A stretch of DNA of 64,000 bases from Fimbriimonadales bacterium (GCA_045862955.1 BTVI01000003.1:32001-96000); one strand, 5' to 3'; positions 6,425 to 55,324 are shown, numbered from the stretch's first letter. Numbers and translations are program-made. The notes: generated by a model not told the origin, from the sequence alone.

Positions 6425-7199
6425 GCAGATTCTGGAGAACAAGCGGCAGGAGGTCATCACGAGAAAGCTGCTTGCGCCCGTTGCGGACATGATCCTGCGC
6501 GCCGAGGATGCACCCCGCCCGCGACGCTTCGCCAAAGCACTAGCCGACCATCCCTCGAAGCCAGCGCTCATCGCAGAGGTGAAGAAAGCATCGCCGTCCA
6601 AGGGGGTCATCCGCGAGGACTTCGACCCCGTTGAGATAGCCTCGGCTTACGAGCGAGGCGGCGCCTGCTGCATCAGCGTACTGACCGACGAGCGCTACTT
6701 CCAGGGGCGGCTCGAGTACTTGACACGCGTGAAGGAAGCCGTATCTCTCCCGGTCCTGTGCAAGGATTTCATCCTCGACCCCTATCAGATCTACGAGGCC
6801 TTGGTGGCGGGGGCCGACGCGATCCTGCTGATTGCGCGTGCCTTCCGCGATGACCCGAACGCACTTGCAGACCTCATCTGGACGGCCGTAGAATACGATC
6901 TCGACACGCTCGTCGAGGTACACGATGCGGAGGAGATTCGACTGCTCGAAGGGTGCCGGTTCGACATGCTCGGCATCAACAACCGCGATCTCGAGACCTT
7001 CCATACCGACTTGGCGGTGACCGAGCGGCTTGCTGGTATGGCACCTCGTGATTCGCTCGTCGTGGCCGAGAGCGGGATTGAGACACACGAAGACCTGAAG
7101 CGACTCGCTCGGTGCGGTGTGTCGGCCGTGCTGGTCGGCGAGTCACTGATGCGACAGCCCGATGTGGAGGCTGCAACGCGGAAACTGCTAGGCCGATGA
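6411..7199 (+). CDS. trpC: Indole-3-glycerol phosphate synthase
   Basis: IAEVKKASPSKG, SVLTD, KDFI, GINNRDL and VAESGI motifs. Confidence 0.96.
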   Translation: MSILEQILENKRQEVITRKLLAPVADMILRAEDAPRPRRFAKALADHPSKPALIAEVKKASPSKGVIREDFDPVEIASAYERGGACCISVLTDERYFQGRLEYLTRVKEAVSLPVLCKDFILDPYQIYEALVAGADAILLIARAFRDDPNALADLIWTAVEYDLDTLVEVHDAEEIRLLEGCRFDMLGINNRDLETFHTDLAVTERLAGMAPRDSLVVAESGIETHEDLKRLARCGVSAVLVGESLMRQPDVEAATRKLLGR

Positions 7200-7792: not shown

Positions 7793-7862
7793 GGGGCGAT
7801 CGAGGCAAAAACGTGCGGGATTGCACAAGGAATCCTCTTCTACATGTCATAAACAAGGGCGT

Positions 7863-8459
7863 ATGCCGATGCATGTGTTAGCCGACAGCGATCTAGAGAA
7901 GCTGCTGACGGCAATACTGGACCGTTCCTATGGGGTTGCCCTGCGGATGGCGCGAAGCACAGAGGAAGCAGAGCTACTCCTCGGCGAGACCGTTGCCGAA
8001 GCCGTCCGGCGCTACCCGAAAGATGCTCCAGGACCGGCGTTTGGCCTGTGGTTTTATCGCCTTCTCGTAGAGGCGTTCGTGAAGTCGCGCGCCCGCAGGT
8101 TGCGAGAAAGCAAACAACCGGAGGCGGAGGAAGCGACCGAGCTCTTCCTCTATCACGAGACGCAGCGGCTGGGCATGCACTCGCAGTCCAGGGACCCGGC
8201 AGCGGTCTTTTTGGCCAAGCTCCGCCCGGAGCAGATTGCGGCGGCGGTCGAGGCTCTGCCTGATGAGTACCGTGTTCTGTGCGCGCTGTTCCTGTACGAA
8301 GACTTGCGGTACGTAGAGTTGGCTGCCATCCTCGGGGTTGCGCCGAGTGTGGCTCGCAGTCGGCTGCACCGCGGGCGCAACATGCTGCAGCGAACGCTGT
8401 GGCGCGTGGCAATCGAATCCGGGGTGATCCAAGAACCCGCTACGGGGAATCTGGCATGA
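7863..8459 (+). CDS. ECF-type RNA polymerase sigma factor
   Basis: Region 2-like (AEL..ET...A; WFYRLL) and region 4 HTH (LPDEYR...YVELAAILG...ARSRLHRGR); start uncertain (7863/7869). Confidence 0.85.
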   Translation: MPMHVLADSDLEKLLTAILDRSYGVALRMARSTEEAELLLGETVAEAVRRYPKDAPGPAFGLWFYRLLVEAFVKSRARRLRESKQPEAEEATELFLYHETQRLGMHSQSRDPAAVFLAKLRPEQIAAAVEALPDEYRVLCALFLYEDLRYVELAAILGVAPSVARSRLHRGRNMLQRTLWRVAIESGVIQEPATGNLA

Positions 8460-8713
8460 GCGACACCACCTTCTTCACCTGTGAAGAAACGTTTCGCCGC
8501 ATGAAGGACTACGTGGACCGCGAGCTGCCCGCCGCGGAGGTCGCGCTCGTGGAGATGCACCTGAAGGCTTGCGGCGCGTGTGCGAGCGAGTACCGGTTCG
8601 AGCAGACCTTGCTGCGAGAGATGCGTTCCAAGCTTCGATCCGTGCCGACCTCTCCGGAATCCATCGCACGCCTCCTTTCGAACGCCGCTAAGTCCGGCGA
8701 GCAGCCTAAGTAG
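8456..8713 (+). CDS. Zinc-binding anti-sigma factor (zf-HC2, RsrA-like)
   Basis: TCEE...DYVDREL...HLKACGAC (HxxxCxxC); ATGA overlap with the sigma gene. Confidence 0.88.
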   Translation: MSDTTFFTCEETFRRMKDYVDRELPAAEVALVEMHLKACGACASEYRFEQTLLREMRSKLRSVPTSPESIARLLSNAAKSGEQPK

Positions 8714-8876: not shown

Positions 8877-10097
8877 GTGGAAACCGAGATGCGAACGCAT
8901 GTGATGAAGCCTTATACGATAGCTGCCGCCGCATACGTCCTGGCGGGCGTAGGGGGTGTCGGAGCGGTGTTACTGCACGTTGGCGAACCTCGGCAGTACT
9001 CGGAACCCGTCTTCTACTATGCTCCCGACTGCCCCGGCTGTGGTGACGTGCTGCCCTCTATAAAGCAGTTGGCAGGCTTGCGTTACGTGGATATCTCGCA
9101 GGCAGACGGATACGAGCGGGCTGTCGCGGCGCAAGGCAGCCCCGAGGTCGAGGTTCCATATCTGCAACTCGTCGTAGCCGGCTCACTCCGTACTGCGGTG
9201 GGCTCGGACGAGGTCTCGGCTCTAGCCCATGCGGTCACTGCTACCGACCGCGAACGAGAGACCTCGTTCAAGGTGGCTGTTGGGCTGCTTGGAATAGTCC
9301 TGCTTGCCGGCGCCGCGTCCTGGGCTTGGCTGGGCGAGCTGGCCCCTCCTGCGGGCGTTCTTCTCTCGCTTCTGGCGGCGATGAGGCCGTGCACGGCATG
9401 CGCGTCGGGGGATCGCCTGCTGAGTGCGGCAGCCTCGGTTCTGGGCGTGGCCGTCTTCCTTTGCATCATGGTGGCAGCCCGAGCGCAGGCGCCGCCGAGA
9501 CACGTGGCGGCCTGGCTGTGCGTAGCCGGAGCCATAGTACAGGCGGGCATGCTGGTAGTAGCTCCGAAATTCTGTGTTCCGTGCCTCGGGGTAGGCCTAT
9601 GCTTCCTGCTCGGCGCCAAGATGCTGCCCAACCTGCCCGTGCCTACCGTGTCGCATCCCCAGAGGTCTCGCGCATGGACAGTCTTCGCCGGGGCGGCACT
9701 AGGGTGCAGCGTTGCACTGCAGGCCGCCTCATCGTCGTACTGGCCCGTTCCCAGCGGAGGTCGCCCCATCGCTGAGTATCGGGGCAAAGAGGCATCGGAG
9801 CTTGTCGGCATGCTCCCCGAGGGAGCGCCCCGGCTCGTGGTGCTGGTGGTGGCGGGGTGCGAGGCATGCCAACGTGCGGTGGGGGCGCTCACGAGGGGCG
9901 GGGTGCCCTTCATTGCAGTGCAGAGATGCAGCGAAGCTGCCGGTCCACCCTGCTTCGCCGATGCAGCGCTAGACACCGCATACCCCACCTTTCTGGTGCT
10001 GGACGAGAGCGGGCGGATCGAGAGGATTTCGGCGGGATGGCCTTCGGGTGCAACCGCCGATGAAGCCGTCGAGTATTACAGGAGGTGTACGCAGTGA
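8877..10097 (+). CDS. Membrane thiol-disulfide oxidoreductase: thioredoxin-like + VKOR-like + thioredoxin-like fusion
   Basis: Four CxxC motifs: FYYAPDCPGC...VP (Trx-like); CTAC in a loop and FCVPC at the start of a TM helix (VKOR-like); VAGCEAC...YPTFLVLDESG (Trx/TlpA-like). Start may be 8889 or 8904. Confidence 0.7.
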   Translation: METEMRTHVMKPYTIAAAAYVLAGVGGVGAVLLHVGEPRQYSEPVFYYAPDCPGCGDVLPSIKQLAGLRYVDISQADGYERAVAAQGSPEVEVPYLQLVVAGSLRTAVGSDEVSALAHAVTATDRERETSFKVAVGLLGIVLLAGAASWAWLGELAPPAGVLLSLLAAMRPCTACASGDRLLSAAASVLGVAVFLCIMVAARAQAPPRHVAAWLCVAGAIVQAGMLVVAPKFCVPCLGVGLCFLLGAKMLPNLPVPTVSHPQRSRAWTVFAGAALGCSVALQAASSSYWPVPSGGRPIAEYRGKEASELVGMLPEGAPRLVVLVVAGCEACQRAVGALTRGGVPFIAVQRCSEAAGPPCFADAALDTAYPTFLVLDESGRIERISAGWPSGATADEAVEYYRRCTQ

Positions 10098-10492
10098 AGC
10101 TCGACACGTTGCTGAGGAAATCCTGGCGCGGCGCCGTTGCCGTGCTTGGCGTGACGATGATTCTGGGGCTGATCCAGATGCCCGGCAGCGGGCAGGTGCC
10201 GCCACCCATAGACCCCGATGACTGCAAGCCGAGCGTTCAATCAGACACGGGGTGCAAGGACTTCCAGTATATGTGCAGCCTACTAGGCTGGAACTGGCAG
10301 ATCATCGTAGAATGCCACAGGTGGTGTTGCTATCGCGATGGATACCTATACGCGACGATCTGGGAAGTACCCTCGGCGTGTGACTGTACGCAGAACCGGA
10401 CCGAGTGCTGTTCGATCTTCTTCCCGAGAAACTGCATGGAGACTGCACAGCACATGCAGAGCACGAAGCCATGCCCGCAGGTTGAGCGCTGA
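10094..10492 (+). CDS. Secreted 12-Cys miniprotein, variant 1
   Basis: AGGAGGTG RBS, GTG start overlapping the upstream TGA, basic+hydrophobic signal peptide, Pro-rich linker, 12 Cys; paralog at 12134. Confidence 0.85.
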   Translation: MKLDTLLRKSWRGAVAVLGVTMILGLIQMPGSGQVPPPIDPDDCKPSVQSDTGCKDFQYMCSLLGWNWQIIVECHRWCCYRDGYLYATIWEVPSACDCTQNRTECCSIFFPRNCMETAQHMQSTKPCPQVER

Positions 10493-10672
10493 GGTTCTAT
10501 GAGGAGTGACCAAGGCCGGGTACCCGGACGTGCTCGTCGCTCTCCGTTCGGGCGGTACTGCTGGGCGATCGTGCAGGGGAAAATGCGCGTGGCCCGCGGT
10601 GTCGGACGCCACTCTCCCCCGCGCGGGGCCGAGAGGTCGTTGTCGGTTATCACGTAGGAGGGGAAATCGGAC

Positions 10673-11083
10673 ATGAGCGGACTGGCGGATGAGATTCGAT
10701 CGTGGCGTCCAATATACCAGTGCGTGGCGCTAGGGGCGGCCGCAGGATTCACGTTCGGCGTCTTCGCCATGGTAGGCTACTACGTCCTCGGGGAATTCAG
10801 AGGTGAGCCGACGCAGACTGTCGCTATCAGCACCCTACTCTGTGCACTTGTCATAGCGCCTTGCGAGTCTCGGTGGGGCAGAGCCGGCTTGATCTGGGCG
10901 AACGCAGCCCTAGCCGTAGTCTGGATCGCGTTCTACTTGGTGGCTGCAGCCTACACCGGCCGCGTGTTCGTCGTCGGAGGTCTACGCGGCACTATCGTGG
11001 TGCTAACCGTGCTGCCCCTGCTAGCGGCGGGCAGTAGTGTGCTGTACGTACGGTTTCGGCATAGTCTGATGGTTGGTCGCTAA
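10673..11083 (+). CDS. Small ~4-TM membrane protein (candidate immunity/partner), variant A
   Basis: AGGAGG RBS; hydrophobic 136 aa; paralogs at 12672 and 13114. Confidence 0.8.
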   Translation: MSGLADEIRSWRPIYQCVALGAAAGFTFGVFAMVGYYVLGEFRGEPTQTVAISTLLCALVIAPCESRWGRAGLIWANAALAVVWIAFYLVAAAYTGRVFVVGGLRGTIVVLTVLPLLAAGSSVLYVRFRHSLMVGR

Positions 11084-11093
11084 GAGGTGTTGT

Positions 11094-11822
11094 ATGCTCA
11101 GGCGTGGTGTGGGACTAACGCTCGTGGAGCTACTCGTGGTCACCGCAGTGATCGCCGCGCTCGCTGCGATTCTGTATCCGGTAGTCACAGTCGCACGGAA
11201 ACGTGGGCAGAGCGCTCAGATCGTGAGTAACATGCGACAGCTCGCACAAGCGGTTAATGTATATATGGATGACTACTGCCTGCGTTTGCCACCCTTAGAT
11301 CCCAGGCCTCTACTGAAGAACCCGGCGGTCAGAGCCATCGCCTACTACCCACACAAGATGGCGACGCGGTCGGAGATGGACAGCGCACCGAGAGAAGAAG
11401 TTCCATTCCTCGGAGACTACGTGTACTGCCGGGAGGTGATCGGGCCGTCCGTTGGCTACGTGGTGTTTGATCACTGGCCAGACTTCTGGCGCGACCCCGA
11501 CGCTGTGTGGAACCACTACTGGACGGGCGTTCCGGCTTCCCCTGTCATCCTGGTATCCCTGCACGACGCGGGCTTTCACATGCTACCCCGCCAGAAGCCG
11601 CTGTGGGCGGTCTTCGACACCAAGTATGATGATCCGCCGCCGCCACCGTGGCTTCGTTTTCCCCCTAGGGTGCTGCGCTGTCGGCTGGACACTTCGGTGC
11701 GCACGTACCGTATCTTGAGGCACATGCAGACGAACATGGTCTTCTCCTATCTGCCGCTCTGTAGGAACAGGTTTGTCTGCTGTAGGACGTGTGAGGAGGC
11801 TGGTCAATACTGTTCGGAATAG
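11094..11822 (+). CDS. Prepilin-type N-terminal cleavage/methylation protein with Cys-rich C-terminus, copy 1
   Basis: RRGVG|LTLVELLVVTAVIAALAAILYPV...SNMRQL; ends CRNRFVCCRTCEEAGQYCSE; GAGGTG RBS before ATG 11094. Confidence 0.85.
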   Translation: MLRRGVGLTLVELLVVTAVIAALAAILYPVVTVARKRGQSAQIVSNMRQLAQAVNVYMDDYCLRLPPLDPRPLLKNPAVRAIAYYPHKMATRSEMDSAPREEVPFLGDYVYCREVIGPSVGYVVFDHWPDFWRDPDAVWNHYWTGVPASPVILVSLHDAGFHMLPRQKPLWAVFDTKYDDPPPPPWLRFPPRVLRCRLDTSVRTYRILRHMQTNMVFSYLPLCRNRFVCCRTCEEAGQYCSE

Positions 11823-11876
11823 CCTCCGACGACGTCGGGGCGAAGCCCCCCTGTCTGCTCGGTAGCGCCAGGCGAC

Positions 11877-12137
11877 TTGGTGCTGGTGATGGCGGGGTGC
11901 GAGGCGTGCGAGCGTGCGGTGGGGGCGCTCACGAGGGGCGGGGTGCCCTTCATTGCAGTGCGGAGATGCAGCGAAGCTGCCGGTCCACCCTGCTTCGCCG
12001 ATGCAGCGCTAGACACGGCATACCCCACCTTTCTGGTGCTGGACGAGAGCGGGCGGATGGAGAGGATTTCGGCGGGATGGCCTTCGGGTGCAACCGCCGA
12101 TGAAGCCGTCGAGTATTACAGGAGGTGTACGCAGTGA
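11877..12137 (+). pseudogene. 5'-truncated copy of the C-terminal thioredoxin domain of 8877-10097 (frame still open)
   Basis: Near-identical to 9838-10097; keeps CEAC and YPT but has no membrane anchor; contains the RBS for miniprotein 2. Confidence 0.75.
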
Positions 12138-12523
12138 AGCTCGACACGTTGCTGAGGAAATCCTGGCGCGGCGCCGTTGCCGTACTTGGCGTGACGATGA
12201 TTCTGGGGCTGATACCGGTGCACACGTTGGGACAGGGAACGCCCCCGCCGCCGATGCAGTGCACGACCACTTCCCATGGGATGTTCGGCTGCAAGGACTA
12301 CCCTGGTTCATGCTCAACCTCAGAGACTAACTGGGACATTATCGTCGCTTGCGATCGCAAGTGCTGTTATGTCGAAGGACAACTCTACTCCGAGACGTGG
12401 ACTCTTTCGTCTAACTGCTGGTGCGTTCAGCTGCAGGGCTGCTGCGATTATAATCGCAATTGCACACAGACGGCGGACATGATCAAGGACAGGTGGCCCT
12501 GCCCGCGATACCAGCAGCAGTAG
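12134..12523 (+). CDS. Secreted 12-Cys miniprotein, variant 2
   Basis: Same leader and 12-Cys framework as 10094-10492, with divergent loops. Confidence 0.85.
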   Translation: MKLDTLLRKSWRGAVAVLGVTMILGLIPVHTLGQGTPPPPMQCTTTSHGMFGCKDYPGSCSTSETNWDIIVACDRKCCYVEGQLYSETWTLSSNCWCVQLQGCCDYNRNCTQTADMIKDRWPCPRYQQQ

Positions 12524-12671
12524 GAGCTTAGCAGCATGAGGCTTGAGAACGGCGGGCACACCGCGAGTGGCTACGCGCAGGGCCTCAGGTCACACCCTCC
12601 CAGGGAGGAATTGGCGCGTGAGGAACCAGCCCCGCTTGTCGTGTTGGCGAACTTCTGAAAGAGGAATCTAA

Positions 12672-13088
12672 GTGGACGTTAGGTATCGCGGCATTTGGGA
12701 CGAGGTGAGGGCATGGCCTGCATGGGTCCGTGTTCCGGCTGTCGGTGCCGCTGCCGGCGCTTCCTTTGGGGTGTTTGCATCGGTGGGGTACTATTTGGTT
12801 GGGCAGTACCGTGGTAGGCCATGGGAGATCGCCATCATCGCTGCTTTGTGGGGCGCTGCAGTTGTCGCTCCTCTGCACAACAGGTACGGCCGCGCAGCAA
12901 TAGCATATGCCACCTTGCTAGCAGCAACCTTGTGGCTGCCGTTCTCTGTGTACACGGGCCAGCTTACCGCGGAGCACATGGCCACCGAGCTCTTCTATAC
13001 TATTCTGTACGTCACGACATTGCCGCTCCTATCCGTCGGCACGTCGACGGTCTATACACTGATGGAGCGGGCAATGCGTGGGCACTAG
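12672..13088 (+). CDS. Small ~4-TM membrane protein, variant B
   Basis: Divergent homolog of 10673 (DEVRAW/DEIRSW; GAAAG..FGVFA.VGYY..G..RG.P; YTG; LPLL); GAGGA RBS. Confidence 0.8.
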   Translation: MDVRYRGIWDEVRAWPAWVRVPAVGAAAGASFGVFASVGYYLVGQYRGRPWEIAIIAALWGAAVVAPLHNRYGRAAIAYATLLAATLWLPFSVYTGQLTAEHMATELFYTILYVTTLPLLSVGTSTVYTLMERAMRGH

Positions 13089-13113
13089 CGGTACATCCGA
13101 CGAGGAGCGCTAA

Positions 13114-13505
13114 TTGGGGACGGGCGGACTAGCGGATGAGATTCGATCGTGGCGTCCAATATACCAGTGCATGGCGCTAGGAACGGCCGCAGGATTCGCC
13201 TTCGGCGTCTTCGCCACGGCAGGCTACTACGTACTCGGGCAATTCAGAGGTGAGCCGATGCAGACTGTCGCTATCAGCACCCTACTCTGTGCACTTGTCG
13301 TAGGGCCTTGCGAGTTTCGGTGGGGCACAGCCGGCTTGATCTGGGCGAACGCAGCCCTAGCCCTAGTCTGGATCGGGTTCTACTTGGTGGCTGCAGCGGA
13401 GGTCCACTCGGCACTATCGTGCTGCTAACCGCGCTGCCCCTGCTAGCGGCGGGCAGTAGCGTGCTGTACGTTCTGTTTCGGCATCGTCCGATGGTCGGTC
13501 GCTAG
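13114..13505 (+). pseudogene. Frameshifted copy of membrane protein variant A
   Basis: 25-bp deletion at 13397/13398 relative to 10951-10975 splits the ORF into 13114-13428 and an out-of-frame C-terminus ending at 13505. Confidence 0.85.
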
Positions 13506-13515
13506 GAGGTGTCGT

Positions 13516-14250
13516 ATGCTTAGGCGTGTCGTCGCACTGACGCTGATAGAGCTACTCGTGGTCATTGCAGTGATCGCCGCGCTCGCTGCGATTCTGTACC
13601 CTGTCATCTCGGGAGCGCGGAAACGTGGGCAGAACGCTCAGATCGTGAGTAACATGCGGCAGCTCGCACAAGCGGTCAATGTCTACATGGAGGACAACCA
13701 CCTGCGTCTTCCGCCCTTCGACCCTAGGCCGCTGCTGAAGAACCCGGCGGTCAGAGCCATCGCCTACTACCCGCACAAGATGGCAACGCGGTCGGAGATG
13801 GACAGTGCACCCAGAGAAGAGGTTCCATTCCTCGGAGACTATGTGTACTGCCGGCAGGTGGTCGGAGTCTCTGCAAACTACTTCGTGGTTGAGCGCTGGC
13901 CCGACGTCATTTGGCGCGACCCCGACGCCGTGTGGCGCAACTACTGGACAGACATTTCGGCGTCACCTGTCATCCTGGTATCCCTGCACGACGCGGGCTT
14001 TCAGATGCTGCCCCGCCAGCAGCCGCTCGGGGACTCCGTCCCGGACACTGAACACGACAAGCCGGTCAGACCACCGCCGGTGAACTTCCCGCCGAGGGTC
14101 CTTAGGTGTAGGCTGGACACTTCGGTGCGGACGTATCGAATCGTGGAGCACATGCAAACGAACATGGGATTCTCGTATATCCCGTTGTGTATGAACAAGT
14201 ATGCCTGCTGCAAGCACTGCCAAGAGGCGGGCCAGGACTGCTCCGAATAG
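13516..14250 (+). CDS. Prepilin-type protein with Cys-rich C-terminus, copy 2
   Basis: [24 protein letters not shown]; ends CMNKYACCKHCQEAGQDCSE; AGGAGGTG RBS. Confidence 0.85.
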   Translation: MLRRVVALTLIELLVVIAVIAALAAILYPVISGARKRGQNAQIVSNMRQLAQAVNVYMEDNHLRLPPFDPRPLLKNPAVRAIAYYPHKMATRSEMDSAPREEVPFLGDYVYCRQVVGVSANYFVVERWPDVIWRDPDAVWRNYWTDISASPVILVSLHDAGFQMLPRQQPLGDSVPDTEHDKPVRPPPVNFPPRVLRCRLDTSVRTYRIVEHMQTNMGFSYIPLCMNKYACCKHCQEAGQDCSE

Positions 14251-14262
14251 CGGTAGACGACA

Positions 14263-16464
14263 TCAGGGCGACGGTGCGGTTGCCTGCTCGGTAGAACCCG
14301 GCGACTTGTAGGAAGGCAGCGGGATGCGCCATGCGCCGCGCCCGTGCGTGGCAGCCGTCAGGTAGCCGGTGCGCCGGTTGAGCGATAGGCTCTCGACCGG
14401 AGTGTGCGGGATGCCCTTGCCGAAGCGCTTCCACTGCCCTCCCCCGGTGTTCGACACGAACACGCCGCAATCCAGCGCCACGTAGATGTCGTCCGGTCGG
14501 GTAGGGTCAATGGCGATGTGACGCACGGGAGCATCCGGAAGGTTGTCATCTACCGAGCGCCAGGAACCACCCGCGTTTTCCGTGAGGAACACGTGCTTGT
14601 TACCGAACCCGGCCAGCCCGACGATCACCCTACGCGGCGAGCGAGGGTCTACGGCGACCCAAGTGATCCACTGCGCGGGCAGTCCCGCCGAGATGTCGTA
14701 CCACTGTTCACCCGTGTTAGGAGTGACCCACATCCGCCCCCACCGGTTGCCGCAGTAGATCACCTCGGACTTGCCATAGGCGATACCAATCGCGGATATG
14801 GGGCCGATGTCACCGCTGATAACCTTCCACGTGTCGCCCCCATCGGTGGTGCGCGACGCGCGGAGGGCCCCCGCAACCAGGATGTCCGGGTCGTTCGGGT
14901 CCATGGCATAGGGTGCATAGAACAGCGCGCCCGTGCGGTCGATCCTATCGGCGATGGACTGCCAGCTCTCGCCCCCGTCGTCCGACTGATACATGGCAAG
15001 CCCTACGTAGGTGGAATAGGCCCGCTTGGGGTTCTTATAGTTGAAGAGACTGATGCCACCGTCTCCCTGCACCGATATCCGCCACACGGGGTTGCCGCGG
15101 TACTTGAGTGTGCCGTTATCCTGTGTGCCACCAATGGCATCGTATGGGTCCCACGGGTGCGTGTCTATGGTTTCGAATTGGATGTTGGCCAGGCCGGTGT
15201 TGATGGCACGCCAGGTGTCGCCTCGGTCATAGGTGACGAACATGCCGCCATCGGTGGCGCCATAGAGCACCTTCGGGTCGTGTGGGTCGAAGGCGTACCC
15301 GTGCCAGTCGGGATGAACGCCCCACTGGAAGGACCGTGCTGCGTCGATCCAAGTCTCGCCGCCATCCAAGCTGCGGAAGCAGCTGGAGCCCGCCGCATAC
15401 ACCACCTTCGGATCGTCCGGCCCGCATGCGAGGAAGTTATCGTACCAGCTGCCGTAGTTCGGTGCGTTGGGGAGGTGCACCCACGTTCGGCCGCCATCGT
15501 CTGTTCGGTACATGACGATGCCCGCATCGGTGACATAGGAGACGTACACGGTGTTGGGCACGTCGCGGCACTGGGCGAGTTGAGTGCGACCGAAGGTGCC
15601 TGGCGCGCGCAGTCCTCCCTCGAGCATCTCCCACGTGTTCCCCGAGTCATTCGTCTTGAATACACCTTCTTTGGGTGGGGTCCCACCACAGGCGTAGAAG
15701 GTATCCGGCTGCTTGGGGCTGTTGACGACGTCGCGGAAGTAGCCCTCGAGCAGTCGCGTCCAGGTGTTGCCTCCATCGAGAGAGCGAAAGAGACCGCGCG
15801 ATGTGGCGGCCAGCAGCAACCCCGGGATCTTGGGGCTCGCGGTCAGCTTGGCCCAATACGCGCCCGCGAACTGCTCTTCGGCCAGCAGCTCCCATGTGCG
15901 GCCCGCATCCATTGAGCGCAAGAGCCCCGCACCGAAGTAGCTGTCTCCGGAGCCGTGCGCCTCACCAGTGCCCGCGTAGATGATGTCCGGGTTGAATGGG
16001 TCGAGAATGAGCGAGCCGAAAGAGAGAGACGCCTCGAAGTCCGAGAGCGGCTCCCAACTCGCACCCCGGTTGGTGCTCTTGAACACTCCGCCGTGCGATG
16101 CGCCGATGTAGATGCGGTTGGTGTTGCGCGGGTCCACCGCGATGCTACTGACACGCCCCGCACACTCGTACCCGCCCCATCCATCGCGGAGTTTGCTGGG
16201 ACCGATGAACTCCCACGCGGGCACGTTGCCCTTGGCATCCGTCCAGTAAGGCAACTGGAGAGCGGCCAGCCAGGCCGAACGCCGCGCCTGCCACGCGGGC
16301 GCCTGGGGCGAGACGCGGAGCTGGTCGAAGTACTCCTCACGCTGCTCGAGTAGCTTGGCATACTGAGAGACGAGCTGTACGGGCGGGCGGTCTTGCGCGT
16401 CCTTCGGTGGGCCTATTTGTACGAGAAAGGCGGCGAGCACGACCAGCGATGCAACGAACCCCAT
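14263..16464 (-). CDS. Secreted BNR/Asp-box beta-propeller protein (GH74/VPS10-like)
   Basis: Signal peptide; many S/T-x-D-x-G-x-T-W boxes (RSMDAGRTW, RSLDGGNTW, RTDDGGRTW), GGTQDNG, ATHGRG. Confidence 0.85.
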   Translation of the reverse strand: MGFVASLVVLAAFLVQIGPPKDAQDRPPVQLVSQYAKLLEQREEYFDQLRVSPQAPAWQARRSAWLAALQLPYWTDAKGNVPAWEFIGPSKLRDGWGGYECAGRVSSIAVDPRNTNRIYIGASHGGVFKSTNRGASWEPLSDFEASLSFGSLILDPFNPDIIYAGTGEAHGSGDSYFGAGLLRSMDAGRTWELLAEEQFAGAYWAKLTASPKIPGLLLAATSRGLFRSLDGGNTWTRLLEGYFRDVVNSPKQPDTFYACGGTPPKEGVFKTNDSGNTWEMLEGGLRAPGTFGRTQLAQCRDVPNTVYVSYVTDAGIVMYRTDDGGRTWVHLPNAPNYGSWYDNFLACGPDDPKVVYAAGSSCFRSLDGGETWIDAARSFQWGVHPDWHGYAFDPHDPKVLYGATDGGMFVTYDRGDTWRAINTGLANIQFETIDTHPWDPYDAIGGTQDNGTLKYRGNPVWRISVQGDGGISLFNYKNPKRAYSTYVGLAMYQSDDGGESWQSIADRIDRTGALFYAPYAMDPNDPDILVAGALRASRTTDGGDTWKVISGDIGPISAIGIAYGKSEVIYCGNRWGRMWVTPNTGEQWYDISAGLPAQWITWVAVDPRSPRRVIVGLAGFGNKHVFLTENAGGSWRSVDDNLPDAPVRHIAIDPTRPDDIYVALDCGVFVSNTGGGQWKRFGKGIPHTPVESLSLNRRTGYLTAATHGRGAWRIPLPSYKSPGSTEQATAPSP

Positions 16465-24825: not shown

Positions 24826-25545
24826 CTATCGCTTCTTCCGCCACCAGACGTAGCAGTTGTCGGCGTGGAGTTGATCGCGCGTCATCACCTTCGCATGGCC
24901 GTCCACGAAGGCTACCATTGCGGACTTCTTGCCGCCGTGTCGGTACTTCACAATGCCGTAGTCGGCCGTGAAGATGCGGGTGCCGAGCGTCGTGTCCATG
25001 CACTTGTATGCTTCCGGCTCTGCGATCCAGTCACCGTCTCCGTTCTCCGTCACTATGATCGTCTCGCTCGGCACTTCCACACCGTTCACACGGGCGGTCT
25101 TGTGATCCTGGTAGTCGGCGACGTTGGGGTTGACGTTGGTGAACACATCTATGTACGCCCAGTTGTTGATGCCGTACTGCCCCAGAAACTTCACCTGCGG
25201 ATTGGCGTAGTAGTCGCGGCAATCCCACCCTTTGCCCTCGAAGCTAGGACAGCTGTAGAGCTCGTCCGCCTTCTGATACGGCTTGGTGATCTGCTTCCAC
25301 GAGGCGTTGTCGGCGCACCAAGGTCGGTCCCACAGCCAGGTGATAGGCAGCACGTCGTCGTGGTCGCCGTAGTACATTGCGATGGCCATGCCCACCTGGC
25401 GCATCTGCTGTCCGCACACGACTTGCTTACCGTGCTCGCGAGCCCGCGAGAATACGGGCAAAAGGATGGCGGCGAGCACCGCGATGATAGCGATGACCAC
25501 CAGAAGCTCGATCAGCGTGAAGGCGCTGAGCCTCGATCGATTCAT
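24826..25545 (-). CDS. Prepilin-type N-terminal / H-X9-DG protein (DUF1559-like)
   Basis: [44 protein letters not shown]. Confidence 0.9.
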   Translation of the reverse strand: MNRSRLSAFTLIELLVVIAIIAVLAAILLPVFSRAREHGKQVVCGQQMRQVGMAIAMYYGDHDDVLPITWLWDRPWCADNASWKQITKPYQKADELYSCPSFEGKGWDCRDYYANPQVKFLGQYGINNWAYIDVFTNVNPNVADYQDHKTARVNGVEVPSETIIVTENGDGDWIAEPEAYKCMDTTLGTRIFTADYGIVKYRHGGKKSAMVAFVDGHAKVMTRDQLHADNCYVWWRKKR

Positions 25546-53251: not shown

Positions 53252-54139
53252 CTACTGAGTTATATCCCACTTGTACGCGTCAATGTCCGTGATCGGACCC
53301 GCGTAGTTCGCGACCACATTCGGCACGCCCGCCGCGATCTGCTGGATGGTCATGGACTTGGCATGTCCGTCCACGAACACCGTGGTGCACTTATCGGTGT
53401 GCCACGGCCAGCAGCCACCGAAAACATCCCAGGCATTCGGAAGCTCTGGGTGCCAACCCGTGTATGGGTAGTAATTGTTGCCCGGTAGCGGCCAGGTGTC
53501 CACGCGCGTTCCGTCCGGCTTTACCCACGTACGGGCAGGCGGAATGGCGATCCAGTTGCCGCCACCGAACGGCTTGCCGCTGGCATCTCTGTTCCACACC
53601 GTGTCGATGTGGAGGAACGTGTTGGCGGTCGAAGCGATGCGCCCTTCCTTCGTCGGAACGGAGCCCCAACCTGACGAAGTGGAATACACCGGGCTCAGAT
53701 AATATGAGTTCATCCCGACGTTAGTGCGCAGCGACCACTCGTAGTTGCGTTCCCAGCGGTTGGCCGGTGGCGGGCATTCGCCTTCGTTGCCGTGCTGGGT
53801 TAGCTCCTTGTCGTTGGCAGTCGGGTCAGACGGGCAGCGAAAGACTGTCCACTCCTTCACGTAGCCCTGAAGGGACGTTACCCAGACTTGGTCTCTGTAG
53901 TCGTACGAACACCCCGCCCATGCTGCGGTGTGATTGGTGAGGACGAACTTGCCGTTATTGTCACCGCGATACTGCGCTTGGGCAATCGCGACCTGCTTGT
54001 AGTTCGAGATGCACTGCGAGACCTTGGCGGCTTTGCGAGCCTGTGAGAATACAGGGAATAGGATTGCAGCAAGAATCGCGATAATTGCGATGACAACCAG
54101 CAGCTCGATAAGCGTGAAACCGGTCCTTTTCATGATCAT
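53252..54139 (-). CDS. Prepilin-type N-terminal / H-X9-DG protein
   Basis: [39 protein letters not shown]. Confidence 0.92.
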
Positions 54140-54421: not shown

Positions 54422-55324
54422 CTAATCCTGCAAGTCCCAAATGTACGCGGACTGGTCGCTGATCAACCCGTCCCAGTTCTGAAGGCGAGAACACCCCGCA
54501 GTGAGTTCATCTGGCATCAAGCGCCGAACGTGGCCGTCGGCGAATACGACCGTGAACCCGCCGTTGTGCCAGTTCCACGCACCACCATAATAGTTGCTCG
54601 ACTTCGGATCCGACTCCCATCCCTTCGGGGCCATTCGCCAATAGTATTCGTTCTGCCAGACGACCCGTGGGAAAGTGTCCCGATTCACTGCGTTGGCAGC
54701 CAGATATCGGCAAGGAGGAACCACGACCCACTGACCCCCGCCGAATGGGCGACCTAGATGATCCCGGCCCCACACGCTGTCCACGAAAACGAGCGTCCTC
54801 GCAGGGCTGGCGATGCTAGAAAAGCGGTTGGGAAACGCCATCCAGCCAAGCGTCACATCTCGCACGAGGGGTGAGAGGTACATGAAGTTGAACCCCAAGT
54901 TCGTTCGCAAGGACCGAACGTAAAACTCGCCCCAGTCGTCGTCAGGCGCCGCATCCACGTCGTCCCAACGCCCGACGCGAGCCGGTGTTGCACGTCCAGT
55001 GTCACCGGGGCATTCGAACACGTCTACCGACCTGGTGTACGGGTAGAGAACCTGGACCCACGTTCGGTCGTCGGGGTCGACTCTCTCGGGGATGTAAGCG
55101 TGGTAATTGGTGGGCGGGAACCGATCGCTGTACTCGTCCATGTACATCCGCAGAGCCTTCAGCACAGCGCTGAAGTTCTCGGCGCACGAGGCACGGATCG
55201 CAGCACCGCGCGCAGCGCTCATGACAGGAAACAGCAGCGCCGCGAGGATGGCTATCACCGCCACGACGACGAGAAGCTCCACCAGCGAGAAGGCCTGCCG
55301 ATGCCTCAGGTTATCGCCTCCCAC
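54422..55324 (-). CDS. Prepilin-type N-terminal / H-X9-DG protein (paralog of 53252)
   Basis: A|FSLVELLVV; WHNGGFTVVFADGH; shares SLRTN.G.N..YLSP and PFGGG.W with its neighbour. Confidence 0.9.
   Translation of the reverse strand: MGGDNLRHRQAFSLVELLVVVAVIAILAALLFPVMSAARGAAIRASCAENFSAVLKALRMYMDEYSDRFPPTNYHAYIPERVDPDDRTWVQVLYPYTRSVDVFECPGDTGRATPARVGRWDDVDAAPDDDWGEFYVRSLRTNLGFNFMYLSPLVRDVTLGWMAFPNRFSSIASPARTLVFVDSVWGRDHLGRPFGGGQWVVVPPCRYLAANAVNRDTFPRVVWQNEYYWRMAPKGWESDPKSSNYYGGAWNWHNGGFTVVFADGHVRRLMPDELTAGCSRLQNWDGLISDQSAYIWDLQD

Follow-up and report, generated by a model that had tools for sequence, protein, structure and literature searches.

Cassette exchange at a tandemly duplicated four-gene module encoding a predicted secreted, cysteine-rich protein in Fimbriimonadales

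Polymorphic toxin-immunity cassettes, exemplified by CdiA-CT/CdiI, Rhs-CT, and the killing domains of colicins and pyocins with their immunity proteins, place unrelated toxin domains behind a constant part. Conopeptide precursors combine a conserved signal and pro region with a hypervariable toxin built on a cysteine framework. The sublancin 168 operon of Bacillus subtilis SPbeta contains sunA, the oxidoreductases BdbA and BdbB, of which BdbB is DsbB-like, and the membrane immunity protein SunI; sublancin itself is a 37-residue glycopeptide that is exported by an ABC transporter. The pilA groups of Pseudomonas aeruginosa, with tfpO and tfpW-Z, form islands of pilin alleles and allele-specific accessory genes. 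Here we describe a locus in a 64,000-nucleotide stretch of DNA from a Fimbriimonadales bacterium (GCA_045862955.1, BTVI01000003.1:32001-96000; hereafter the window), whose genome, G000, is a 94-contig draft that is 97.6% complete. The locus contains two genes for cysteine-rich proteins, pep1 and pep2, each in a module with genes for TM-Trx (a putative membrane thiol-disulfide oxidoreductase), mem (a small membrane protein), and a prepilin-like protein. The module is tandemly duplicated in the window, from the middle of TM-Trx to just beyond the pilin gene, and the mature part of pep2 moves together with a neighboring mem gene as one recombining block. The locus appears to work most like the polymorphic toxin-immunity cassettes, although membership in that class is not claimed.

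The start codon of both pep genes is a GTG, overlapping the TGA that ends the frame before it; 8 nt separate it from an AGGAGG upstream, which for pep1 is at 10080-10085 (window coordinates are used throughout; features are listed in Table 1). BLASTP aligns the two proteins with 70 of 135 positions identical (52%, E 3e-41). The original prediction, made by a model from the DNA sequence, had pointed to 27 identical N-terminal residues followed by a shared cysteine spacing, and alignment bears this out: residues 1-27 are identical and all 12 cysteines align, with the pattern C-x9-C-x6-C-x12-C-x3-CC-x16-C-x-C-x6/5-CC-x7/5-C-x12-C. Its endpoint for the DNA identity, 10173/12213, is exact at base level, with dense mismatches from 12214 (= 10174) onward. 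Between the outermost cysteines its count of 22 identical positions also holds, but out of 69 aligned non-cysteine positions (with 3 gap columns) and not 72. Shuffled sequences gave only 4.2 ± 2.0 identities, with a maximum of 14 in 10,000 shuffles; pep1 and pep2 are thus homologous beyond their cysteines. Judged by sequence, the shared N-terminus has positive charges in its N-region and a hydrophobic core of 14 residues. Cleavage sites of the A-x-A type are visible in pep relatives, and pep1 and pep2 lack a clear A-x-A.

Unit A of the duplication runs TM-Trx, pep1, memA, and prepilin-like A, and unit B runs truncated TM-Trx C-terminus, pep2, memB1, memB2, and prepilin-like B. At the junction between the units (11879/11880), sequence from beyond the pilin gene is joined to the middle of TM-Trx. 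The near-identical tract of 334 nt, the last 80 nt of which encode the leader, starts here, at 11880, within the truncated TM-Trx copy and approximately 255 nt 5' of the pep2 start codon. Similarity between the units stops at 12213 and returns at 10656 = 13103, and outside the near-identical tract the copies of the duplicated unit are 74-92% identical. Synonymous (dS) and nonsynonymous (dN) divergence was calculated by the method of Nei and Gojobori. Between the units, dS is 0.047 in the C-terminal part of TM-Trx and 0.094 in the leader, where dN is 0, but in the mature part synonymous sites are saturated (proportion of synonymous differences, pS, 0.72; dN 0.69). Beyond the block, memA and memB2 differ at dS 0.059 and dN 0.077 (dN/dS approximately 1.3 across the first 92 codons), and the two pilins at dS 0.63. 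As the identical tract reaches 255 nt into the upstream gene, leader identity reflects a recent duplication or gene-conversion tract and not selection on the leader. The saturated synonymous sites identify the mature domains as old alleles or paralogs that were united by recombination rather than hypermutated in place, and the abrupt step in synonymous divergence cannot be explained by accelerated amino-acid evolution in place.

Comparison with a sister species of the same genus (G001), which carries a single cassette of the pep2 type, reveals the complementary pattern. Relative to unit B, dS is 0.357 in the C-terminal part of TM-Trx and 0.41 in the leader, falls to 0.032 in the mature part of pep2 and 0.009 in memB1 (1 amino acid change), and is 0.33 in the pilin. 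Forty-seven mismatches occur in 11880-12218 and only 12 in the 891 nt of 12219-13109, with more divergence beyond. The block 12214-13102 is 98.7% identical between the species, and the 148-nt intergenic spacer is likewise conserved. Its left edge lies at 12213/12214 when the units are compared and at 12218/12219 when unit B is compared with the sister species; the right edge lies at 13103 and approximately 13109, respectively, so that both edges agree within 6 nt across the two comparisons. Coinciding edges, together with near-identity across species between diverged flanks, indicate that homologous recombination transfers the block as a whole, the crossover arms being the leader on its left and, on its right, the 5' end of the mem gene that follows. 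The pep2 ortholog of the sister species has 6 amino acid changes; in the mature part there are 4 nonsynonymous and 2 synonymous differences, which are too few for a dN/dS estimate.

The locus was also found in contigs from public bioreactor and sludge metagenomes of several studies. Two runs from independent studies (X4 and X7) each contain pep1, over 529 nt with 0 differences, plus pep2 with memB1, in contigs of 970 and 982 nt with 16-17 differences. The depths of pep1 and pep2-memB1 are 16.1 and 14 in X4 and 10.6 and 11.5 in X7, and the X7 contig of the shared TM-Trx C-terminus and leader has a depth of 21.2, the sum of both. The tandem junction, from the pilin 3' end to 11871 onward, is present in contigs of X4, X7, and X12 (3 runs, 3 studies). 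In these runs the pilin allele upstream of the junction is only about 95% like pilin B, which indicates that the pilin varies too. X12 additionally contains a form that joins 11870 to 14300 and lacks unit B. After position 10207, contigs from X12 and from an RNA-library run (X17) continue into sequence that differs from both pep1 and pep2. Here the same leader precedes a third mature variant, which branches off after the pep1-type leader plus 11 residues; in the 30 letters visible, read by eye, the frame is open with a cysteine at the fifth codon. Coverage by X17 contigs is confined to 8 of 30 bins, in pep1, pep2, memB1, and the end of TM-Trx; since RNA libraries may contain DNA, this hints only weakly at transcription. 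Taken together, the run data argue for a polymorphic locus and against an assembly artefact. Two further joints, 10207 to 13549 and 10151 to 14001, had sides of just 30 and 21 letters and were set aside; the contigs were interpreted over those parts of 9600-14400 that they cover.

An exhaustive HMMER search of 1.84 billion representatives with a pep1 and pep2 profile returned 6 matches at E ≤ 0.001. The further distant relatives from this search were just P0004-P0007, proteins of 120-140 aa with a signal peptide and a cysteine-rich body; P0003, a 4900-aa TIG-repeat protein, was judged spurious. A word-indexed search with pep1 found no proteins beyond pep1 and pep2, and the same type of search with a 25-sequence pep profile gave at least 6 matches. 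Among 401 genomes of the phylum, G000 included, the pep profile matches 3 and the TM-Trx profile 17; the single 406-aa TM-Trx sequence found no relative when searched against the genome contigs. Every TM-Trx homolog with readable flanks is adjoined by a small cysteine-rich secreted protein. Using home-made profiles, Pfam, and hydropathy, we counted 19 cassettes in 14 genomes. All 19 combine, on a single strand, a complete or fragmentary TM-Trx with pep and a prepilin-like gene, and in 18 these are accompanied by a small protein of 136-198 aa with at least two strongly hydrophobic segments, none being found in G007. The order of mem and pilin differs between cassettes, and the genes flanking the module are unrelated from locus to locus, which marks the four genes as a self-contained unit. 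No pilus assembly genes lie beside the module in the annotated loci. There are three pep genes in G000 and two in G001, and the third G000 cassette (contig C6) again follows a truncated thioredoxin fragment; G146, G173, and G205 have 3 TM-Trx matches each. Full-text literature searches, judged by titles and abstracts, found no description of the module.

Decay of the module is frequent: TM-Trx is split in the sister species and interrupted by an IS200-like gene in G330, pep2 is deleted and frameshifted in the variant P0009, and memB2 is broken. The split TM-Trx ortholog (G001 L015, 9457-10687, minus strand) falls into three open reading frames (ORFs) of 186, 193, and 82 aa, reflecting either a frameshifted pseudogene or assembly errors. 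In G330 (L023, 6220-8113) the interrupting sequence is a 159-aa ORF on the opposite strand (6675-7154) that, by eye, resembles IS200/IS605-type transposases. P0009, in the pep2 cluster, is a 96-aa variant present on 4 contigs that is identical to pep2 up to the CCY motif and continues in another frame of the pep2 3' end, pointing to an internal deletion and hence an inactivated copy in a third relative. G146 (L055, 3918-12021) contains two complete cassettes plus an orphan mem-pilin-pilin set within 8 kb; the C-terminal halves of its mem copies are identical and the N-termini different, indicating more mosaicism.

TM-Trx comprises an N-terminal thioredoxin-fold domain, a helical membrane core, and a C-terminal thioredoxin domain. 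Its motifs are CTAC (172-175), P-x-x-CVPC (230-236), and CEAC (328-331); across 16 sequences their CxxC, P-x-x-C-x-x-C, and CxxC positions, as well as the cis-proline position P370, are invariant. The protein matches no Pfam or NCBIfam family above cut-off, and a sequence search of the PDB found nothing at E ≤ 10. In its AlphaFold2 (AF2) model (predicted local distance difference test score, pLDDT, 75.9), thioredoxin folds at residues 40-127 and 300-406 flank the membrane core. The two folds superpose on thioredoxins, ResA, DsbE, and SdbA with Z-scores of 7.4-8.7 (for residues 299-406, ResA 7.8, DsbE 7.6, and SdbA 7.4), and Foldseek matches thioredoxins with a probability of 1.00. The distribution of positive charges, read by the positive-inside rule, suggests that both thioredoxin domains and both membrane CxxC motifs face the periplasm. 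In combining a membrane core bearing redox cysteines with a periplasmic thioredoxin domain that has a CxxC and a cis-proline, TM-Trx would resemble the VKOR-thioredoxin fusion (4nv2) and DsbD/ResA-type proteins. Unlike the fusion, it does not match Pfam VKOR, its core has two CxxC motifs, and it carries an extra N-terminal thioredoxin-fold domain. When PF07884 (VKOR) was searched over the whole genome it matched a gene on contig C16 (52.3 bits) and not TM-Trx. Weak leads to VKOR are the appearance of Synechococcus VKOR 4nv2 at rank 40 (E 0.086) and a top language-model cluster (0.90) with VKOR on 25% of its members. The arrangement as a whole resembles the sublancin operon, in that a putative secreted disulfide protein lies beside its own membrane disulfide enzyme and a small membrane protein. 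It differs in the enzyme, whose two thioredoxin-fold domains surround a two-CxxC core that matches neither DsbB nor VKOR profiles, and in having neither a glycosyltransferase nor an ABC exporter.

In an alignment of 25 pep members, C54, C78, C105, C106, and C127 are invariant and C61, C96, and C114 nearly so. The family core thus consists of eight cysteines, to which the G000 proteins add four, and family-wide identity is 13-29%. The AF2 model of pep1 (pLDDT 79.6; predicted template modelling score, pTM, 0.60) has strands at residues 44-54, 68-81, 84-90, and 97-105 followed by a C-terminal helix; for pep1 the ESM Atlas gave no usable feature match and structure rows with TM ≤ 0.41. Hydropathy analysis of memA indicates four segments, as in most mem homologs. 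The prepilin-like proteins A and B score 17.4 and 17.5 bits against TIGR02532 (cut-off 16.3) and 15.9 bits against Pfam N_methyl, below its cut-off of 21.2. Pilins of the cassettes share the cleavage/methylation motif G-F-T-L-x-E, with the glutamate invariant (n = 18), and carry conserved cysteine pairs; pep has no pilin-type N-terminus. A complex prediction for the mature part of pep1 with pilin A, run without controls, gave a score of 0.00, which speaks neither for nor against binding.

Three genomes of a second genus, g88 (G330, G370, and G345), carry the locus between the same flanking genes. Their amino acid identities are 88-90% for the LarB-like flank and 75-89% for TM-Trx, compared to 34-44% for pep, 51-57% for mem, and 55-65% for the pilin. 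Along the DNA, identity is about 85% up to the pep start, falls exactly there to about 50%, and rises again beyond the pilin gene, so that the variable block in this genus consists of pep, mem, and pilin. The leader of the g88 proteins is 37-58% identical and the rest of pep 30-49%. Because the leader there varies like the rest, the identical leader in G000 is best viewed as a local accident of recent copying. Variability does not extend to every copy: G000 and the sister species have collinear pep3 cassettes, about 84% identical, with 83-90 of 90 positions identical in windows over pep3, which is conserved like its flanks.

It is fairly probable, in our view, that pep1 and pep2 represent alternative versions of a cassette for a secreted, disulfide-rich protein of about 100 aa within a four-gene module of TM-Trx, pep, mem, and a prepilin-like protein. 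According to this proposal, pep would be exported through a Sec-type signal peptide. TM-Trx, encoded by the gene whose stop codon overlaps the pep start, would act in the periplasm to oxidise or isomerise the 8-cysteine core of pep (12 cysteines here). Folded pep would then function extracellularly or at the cell surface. The mem that travels with it would be its cognate partner, either an immunity-like protector or a specific accessory factor, and the pilin-like protein may aid display or export of pep. Whole-cassette exchange between strains and species would maintain the variation. As to function, our best guess is that pep is an effector, secreted or at the surface, that is polymorphic and has a cognate partner in the membrane.

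Several observations weigh against this proposal. Toxicity, immunity, disulfide formation, and secretion are each predictions, and TM-Trx may oxidise, reduce, or isomerise. Neither pep nor mem matches a toxin, bacteriocin, or defence family in Pfam, NCBIfam, or PADLOC, and the pep1 model finds no fold match in the PDB (Foldseek best E 1.6; VIA-align best Z 3.5 among 48,161 chains). A simple toxin-immunity model does not explain why a pilin gene is always present and hypervariable. Between G000 and the sister species, conservation of pep3 equals or exceeds that of its flanks, and the near-identity of the pep2 block could in principle reflect unusually strong conservation, although the spacer within it is conserved as well. 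Finally, the genome is a draft of many contigs, and the metagenome evidence consists of short, unphased contigs assembled per run.

Two more specific versions of an effector and its partner are about equally likely, and each is tentative. One holds that pep is a bacteriocin-like disulfide-rich toxin, the adjacent four-segment membrane protein its immunity protein, extra or broken mem genes orphan immunity, and TM-Trx the counterpart of the oxidoreductases dedicated to disulfide bacteriocins. Like the polymorphic toxin-immunity cassettes, the locus has a constant 5' part, a sharp junction, and a co-travelling small downstream gene, as well as extra and broken downstream copies and exchange by homologous recombination between strains and species. 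The junction has been reused in independent events (A/B, B/G001, and the third variant), memB1 was inherited with the mature part of pep2 as one block, mem without pep occurs (memB2, an intact variant in the sister species, and the orphan mem-pilin sets of G146), a genome can hold several divergent cassettes (3 in G000), and modules decay frequently. In contrast to those systems, the constant part here comprises just the end of the upstream gene and a putative signal peptide, the variable parts share a single fold with its 8-cysteine core, no toxin or immunity family is recognisable, and the set includes a pilin-like gene for which immunity does not account; moreover, the variable block of pep1 lacks a mem gene of its own and pep3 is not variable. 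The other version takes the pilin-like protein, the four-segment protein, and pep as a co-adapted surface structure, either a tip adhesin or a displayed ligand accompanied by an accessory protein specific to the pilin, whose variation would be driven by phages, predators, or kin recognition and not by a role as a toxin. It is consistent with the pilin-like gene in 19/19 cassettes, with the g88 pilin and mem being hypervariable along with pep at conserved TM-Trx and flanks, and with conserved cysteine pairs in the cassette pilins, which the same oxidoreductase could serve. In the P. aeruginosa pilA islands, too, a pilin-type gene and small accessory membrane proteins co-vary as allele sets at a conserved locus. 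The module differs in that it adds a cysteine-rich non-pilin protein, presumably secreted, and a redox enzyme, it is not beside pilus assembly genes, and the pilin here is of the short H-x9-DG-like type common in the phylum. As pilin-like genes are very common in these genomes, with three more in the window, their adjacency may mean less than it appears to, and pep itself does not begin like a pilin. A bolder form of the effector hypothesis, which we regard as doubtful, is that Armatimonadota possess, in this module, extracellular effectors of a new, polymorphic and disulfide-knotted class, with a private membrane disulfide machine of novel architecture, a four-segment protector, and a pilin-like adaptor for display or export, that would serve interbacterial antagonism or kin discrimination and whose cassettes of mature domain plus protector are traded between species just past the signal peptide.

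The remaining explanations concern the origin of the pattern and the chemistry of the cysteines. The original prediction offered a conotoxin-like system with a conserved leader and hypervariable loops, in which diversifying selection or else module swapping would act on a target-specific effector. Swapping is what the divergence steps, the shared block edges, and the third variant support; diversification in place on a fixed scaffold, with a leader conserved by selection, improbable in general, is largely refuted for the pep1/pep2 pair. The fixed cysteines with 22/69 other positions identical, and a family that diverges to 13-29% around an invariant cysteine core, do invite such a reading. On the other hand, the leader-versus-mature comparison, applied to the A/B pair, gives a dN below the saturated synonymous divergence and thus no dN/dS above 1, the step in dS is abrupt, the low-divergence tract runs 255 nt into the upstream gene, and g88 leaders vary. 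A diversity-generating retroelement is excluded, since the genome lacks a reverse transcriptase (no PF00078 match); the A/B differences also include indels and are not adenine-specific. The analogy to conopeptides therefore holds only superficially: the cysteine framework is fixed, the loops are variable, and in this one pair the N-terminus is identical, but the leader identity belongs to a recombination tract shared with the neighboring gene, dN/dS does not exceed 1, leaders of other genera are variable, and the protein is bacterial, about 100 aa long, and coupled to a dedicated oxidoreductase. It is very unlikely that the tandem is an assembly artefact in which two strain alleles of one locus were wrongly joined. 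The X12 form without unit B and the draft state of the genome would fit, but the anatomy is that of a true tandem, running from beyond the pilin into the middle of a gene, memB2 has a 25-nt deletion and 8% divergence, and the pilin-to-TM-Trx junction recurs across 3 runs, each from a different study, two of which show pep1 and pep2 at equal depth. We think it just as unlikely that the cysteines bind metal, as they would in a periplasmic metal-binding protein or metallochaperone. High cysteine content with CC pairs is compatible with that role, but the number of cysteines is even (12, with a core of 8), neither a His/Cys metal motif nor a match to a metal-binding family is present, and a CxxC/thioredoxin enzyme, putatively periplasmic, is conserved alongside pep in 19/19 cassettes. 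The putative signal peptide and the translationally coupled thiol-disulfide oxidoreductase lead us to favour disulfides.

These results define an unannotated four-gene module in a poorly studied phylum, in which pep, mem, and the membrane core of TM-Trx belong to no Pfam or NCBIfam family. They also offer a clear case of naturally occurring cassette exchange, whose breakpoints can be placed to the base and which is visible within a single genome, across two species, and in independent metagenomes. Should pep prove to be an effector with a cognate partner, the module would introduce disulfide-rich bacterial effectors of a new family, together with a membrane enzyme of a new type dedicated to disulfide formation. 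More generally, an identical leader beside a divergent mature domain can be the footprint of a gene-conversion tract and not of conotoxin-style selection.

Table 1. Features of the duplicated locus and its immediate neighbors in the window.
Feature	Position	Strand	Basis or remark
ECF-type (extracytoplasmic function) sigma factor, first in same-strand gene row	7821..8459	+	Pfam Sigma70_r4_2 2.3e-08, weak Sigma70_r2
Anti-sigma factor (zf-HC2)	8279..8713	+	Pfam zf-HC2 1.1e-08, residues 68-102; true start probably Met near 8456
TM-Trx, putative membrane thiol-disulfide oxidoreductase, 406 aa	8877..10097	+	
Unit-A near-identical tract: TM-Trx 3' end and 27 leader codons	9840..10173	+	8 mismatches/334 nt vs 11880-12213
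pep1, predicted secreted Cys-rich protein, 132 aa, 12 Cys	10094..10492	+	family profile E 3.5e-27
Unit-A variable block: pep1 mature part and 163-nt spacer	10174..10655	+	~55% identity to unit B
memA, small four-segment (4-TM) membrane protein, 136 aa	10673..11083	+	mem profile E 1.8e-38; hydropathy
Prepilin-like protein A (probable start 11094)	11073..11822	+	TIGR02532 17.4 bits, GspG-like N-terminus
Truncated TM-Trx C-terminal thioredoxin domain, 86 codons, unit B left end	11877..12137	+	TM-Trx profile E 4.5e-27
pep2, predicted secreted Cys-rich protein, 129 aa, 12 Cys	12134..12523	+	
Unit-B variable block: pep2 mature part and memB1	12214..13102	+	near-identical to G001
memB1, 138 aa, memA paralog travelling with pep2	12672..13088	+	mem profile E 6.6e-37
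memB2, memA-like, frameshift ~13396 from 25-nt deletion	13114..13505	+	
Prepilin-like protein B	13516..14250	+	TIGR02532 17.5 bits
BNR/sortilin-like gene, convergent	14263-16464	other strand	

The sigma factor and anti-sigma factor genes that head the gene row are present in G000 and G001 and are not beside the module in 15 other annotated loci; they were rejected as part of it. In the sister species (L015, 11089-11568), a 159-aa ORF lies in the approximately 850 nt between the anti-sigma gene and TM-Trx, a stretch missing in G000. A promoter scan of the locus returned 0 sigma-70-like sites and terminator-like sites that fall inside genes, and was uninformative; PADLOC and Rfam gave no match on the locus.

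Beyond the right end of unit B, window positions 14300-14346 match G001 L015 6164-6210 (reverse complement), a 47-nt copy, at 87%, of the 3' end of the BNR gene. This copy sits just upstream of TM-Trx in the sister species and may be the scar of an earlier tandem arrangement. Downstream of the module in G046 (L022, 3174-5816), a unit of about 45 codons occurs in several copies on both strands beside a run of N and is probably a dispersed repeat element. The three other ORFs with a prepilin motif in the window lie at 24826-25545, 53252-54139, and 54422-55324, all on the minus strand.

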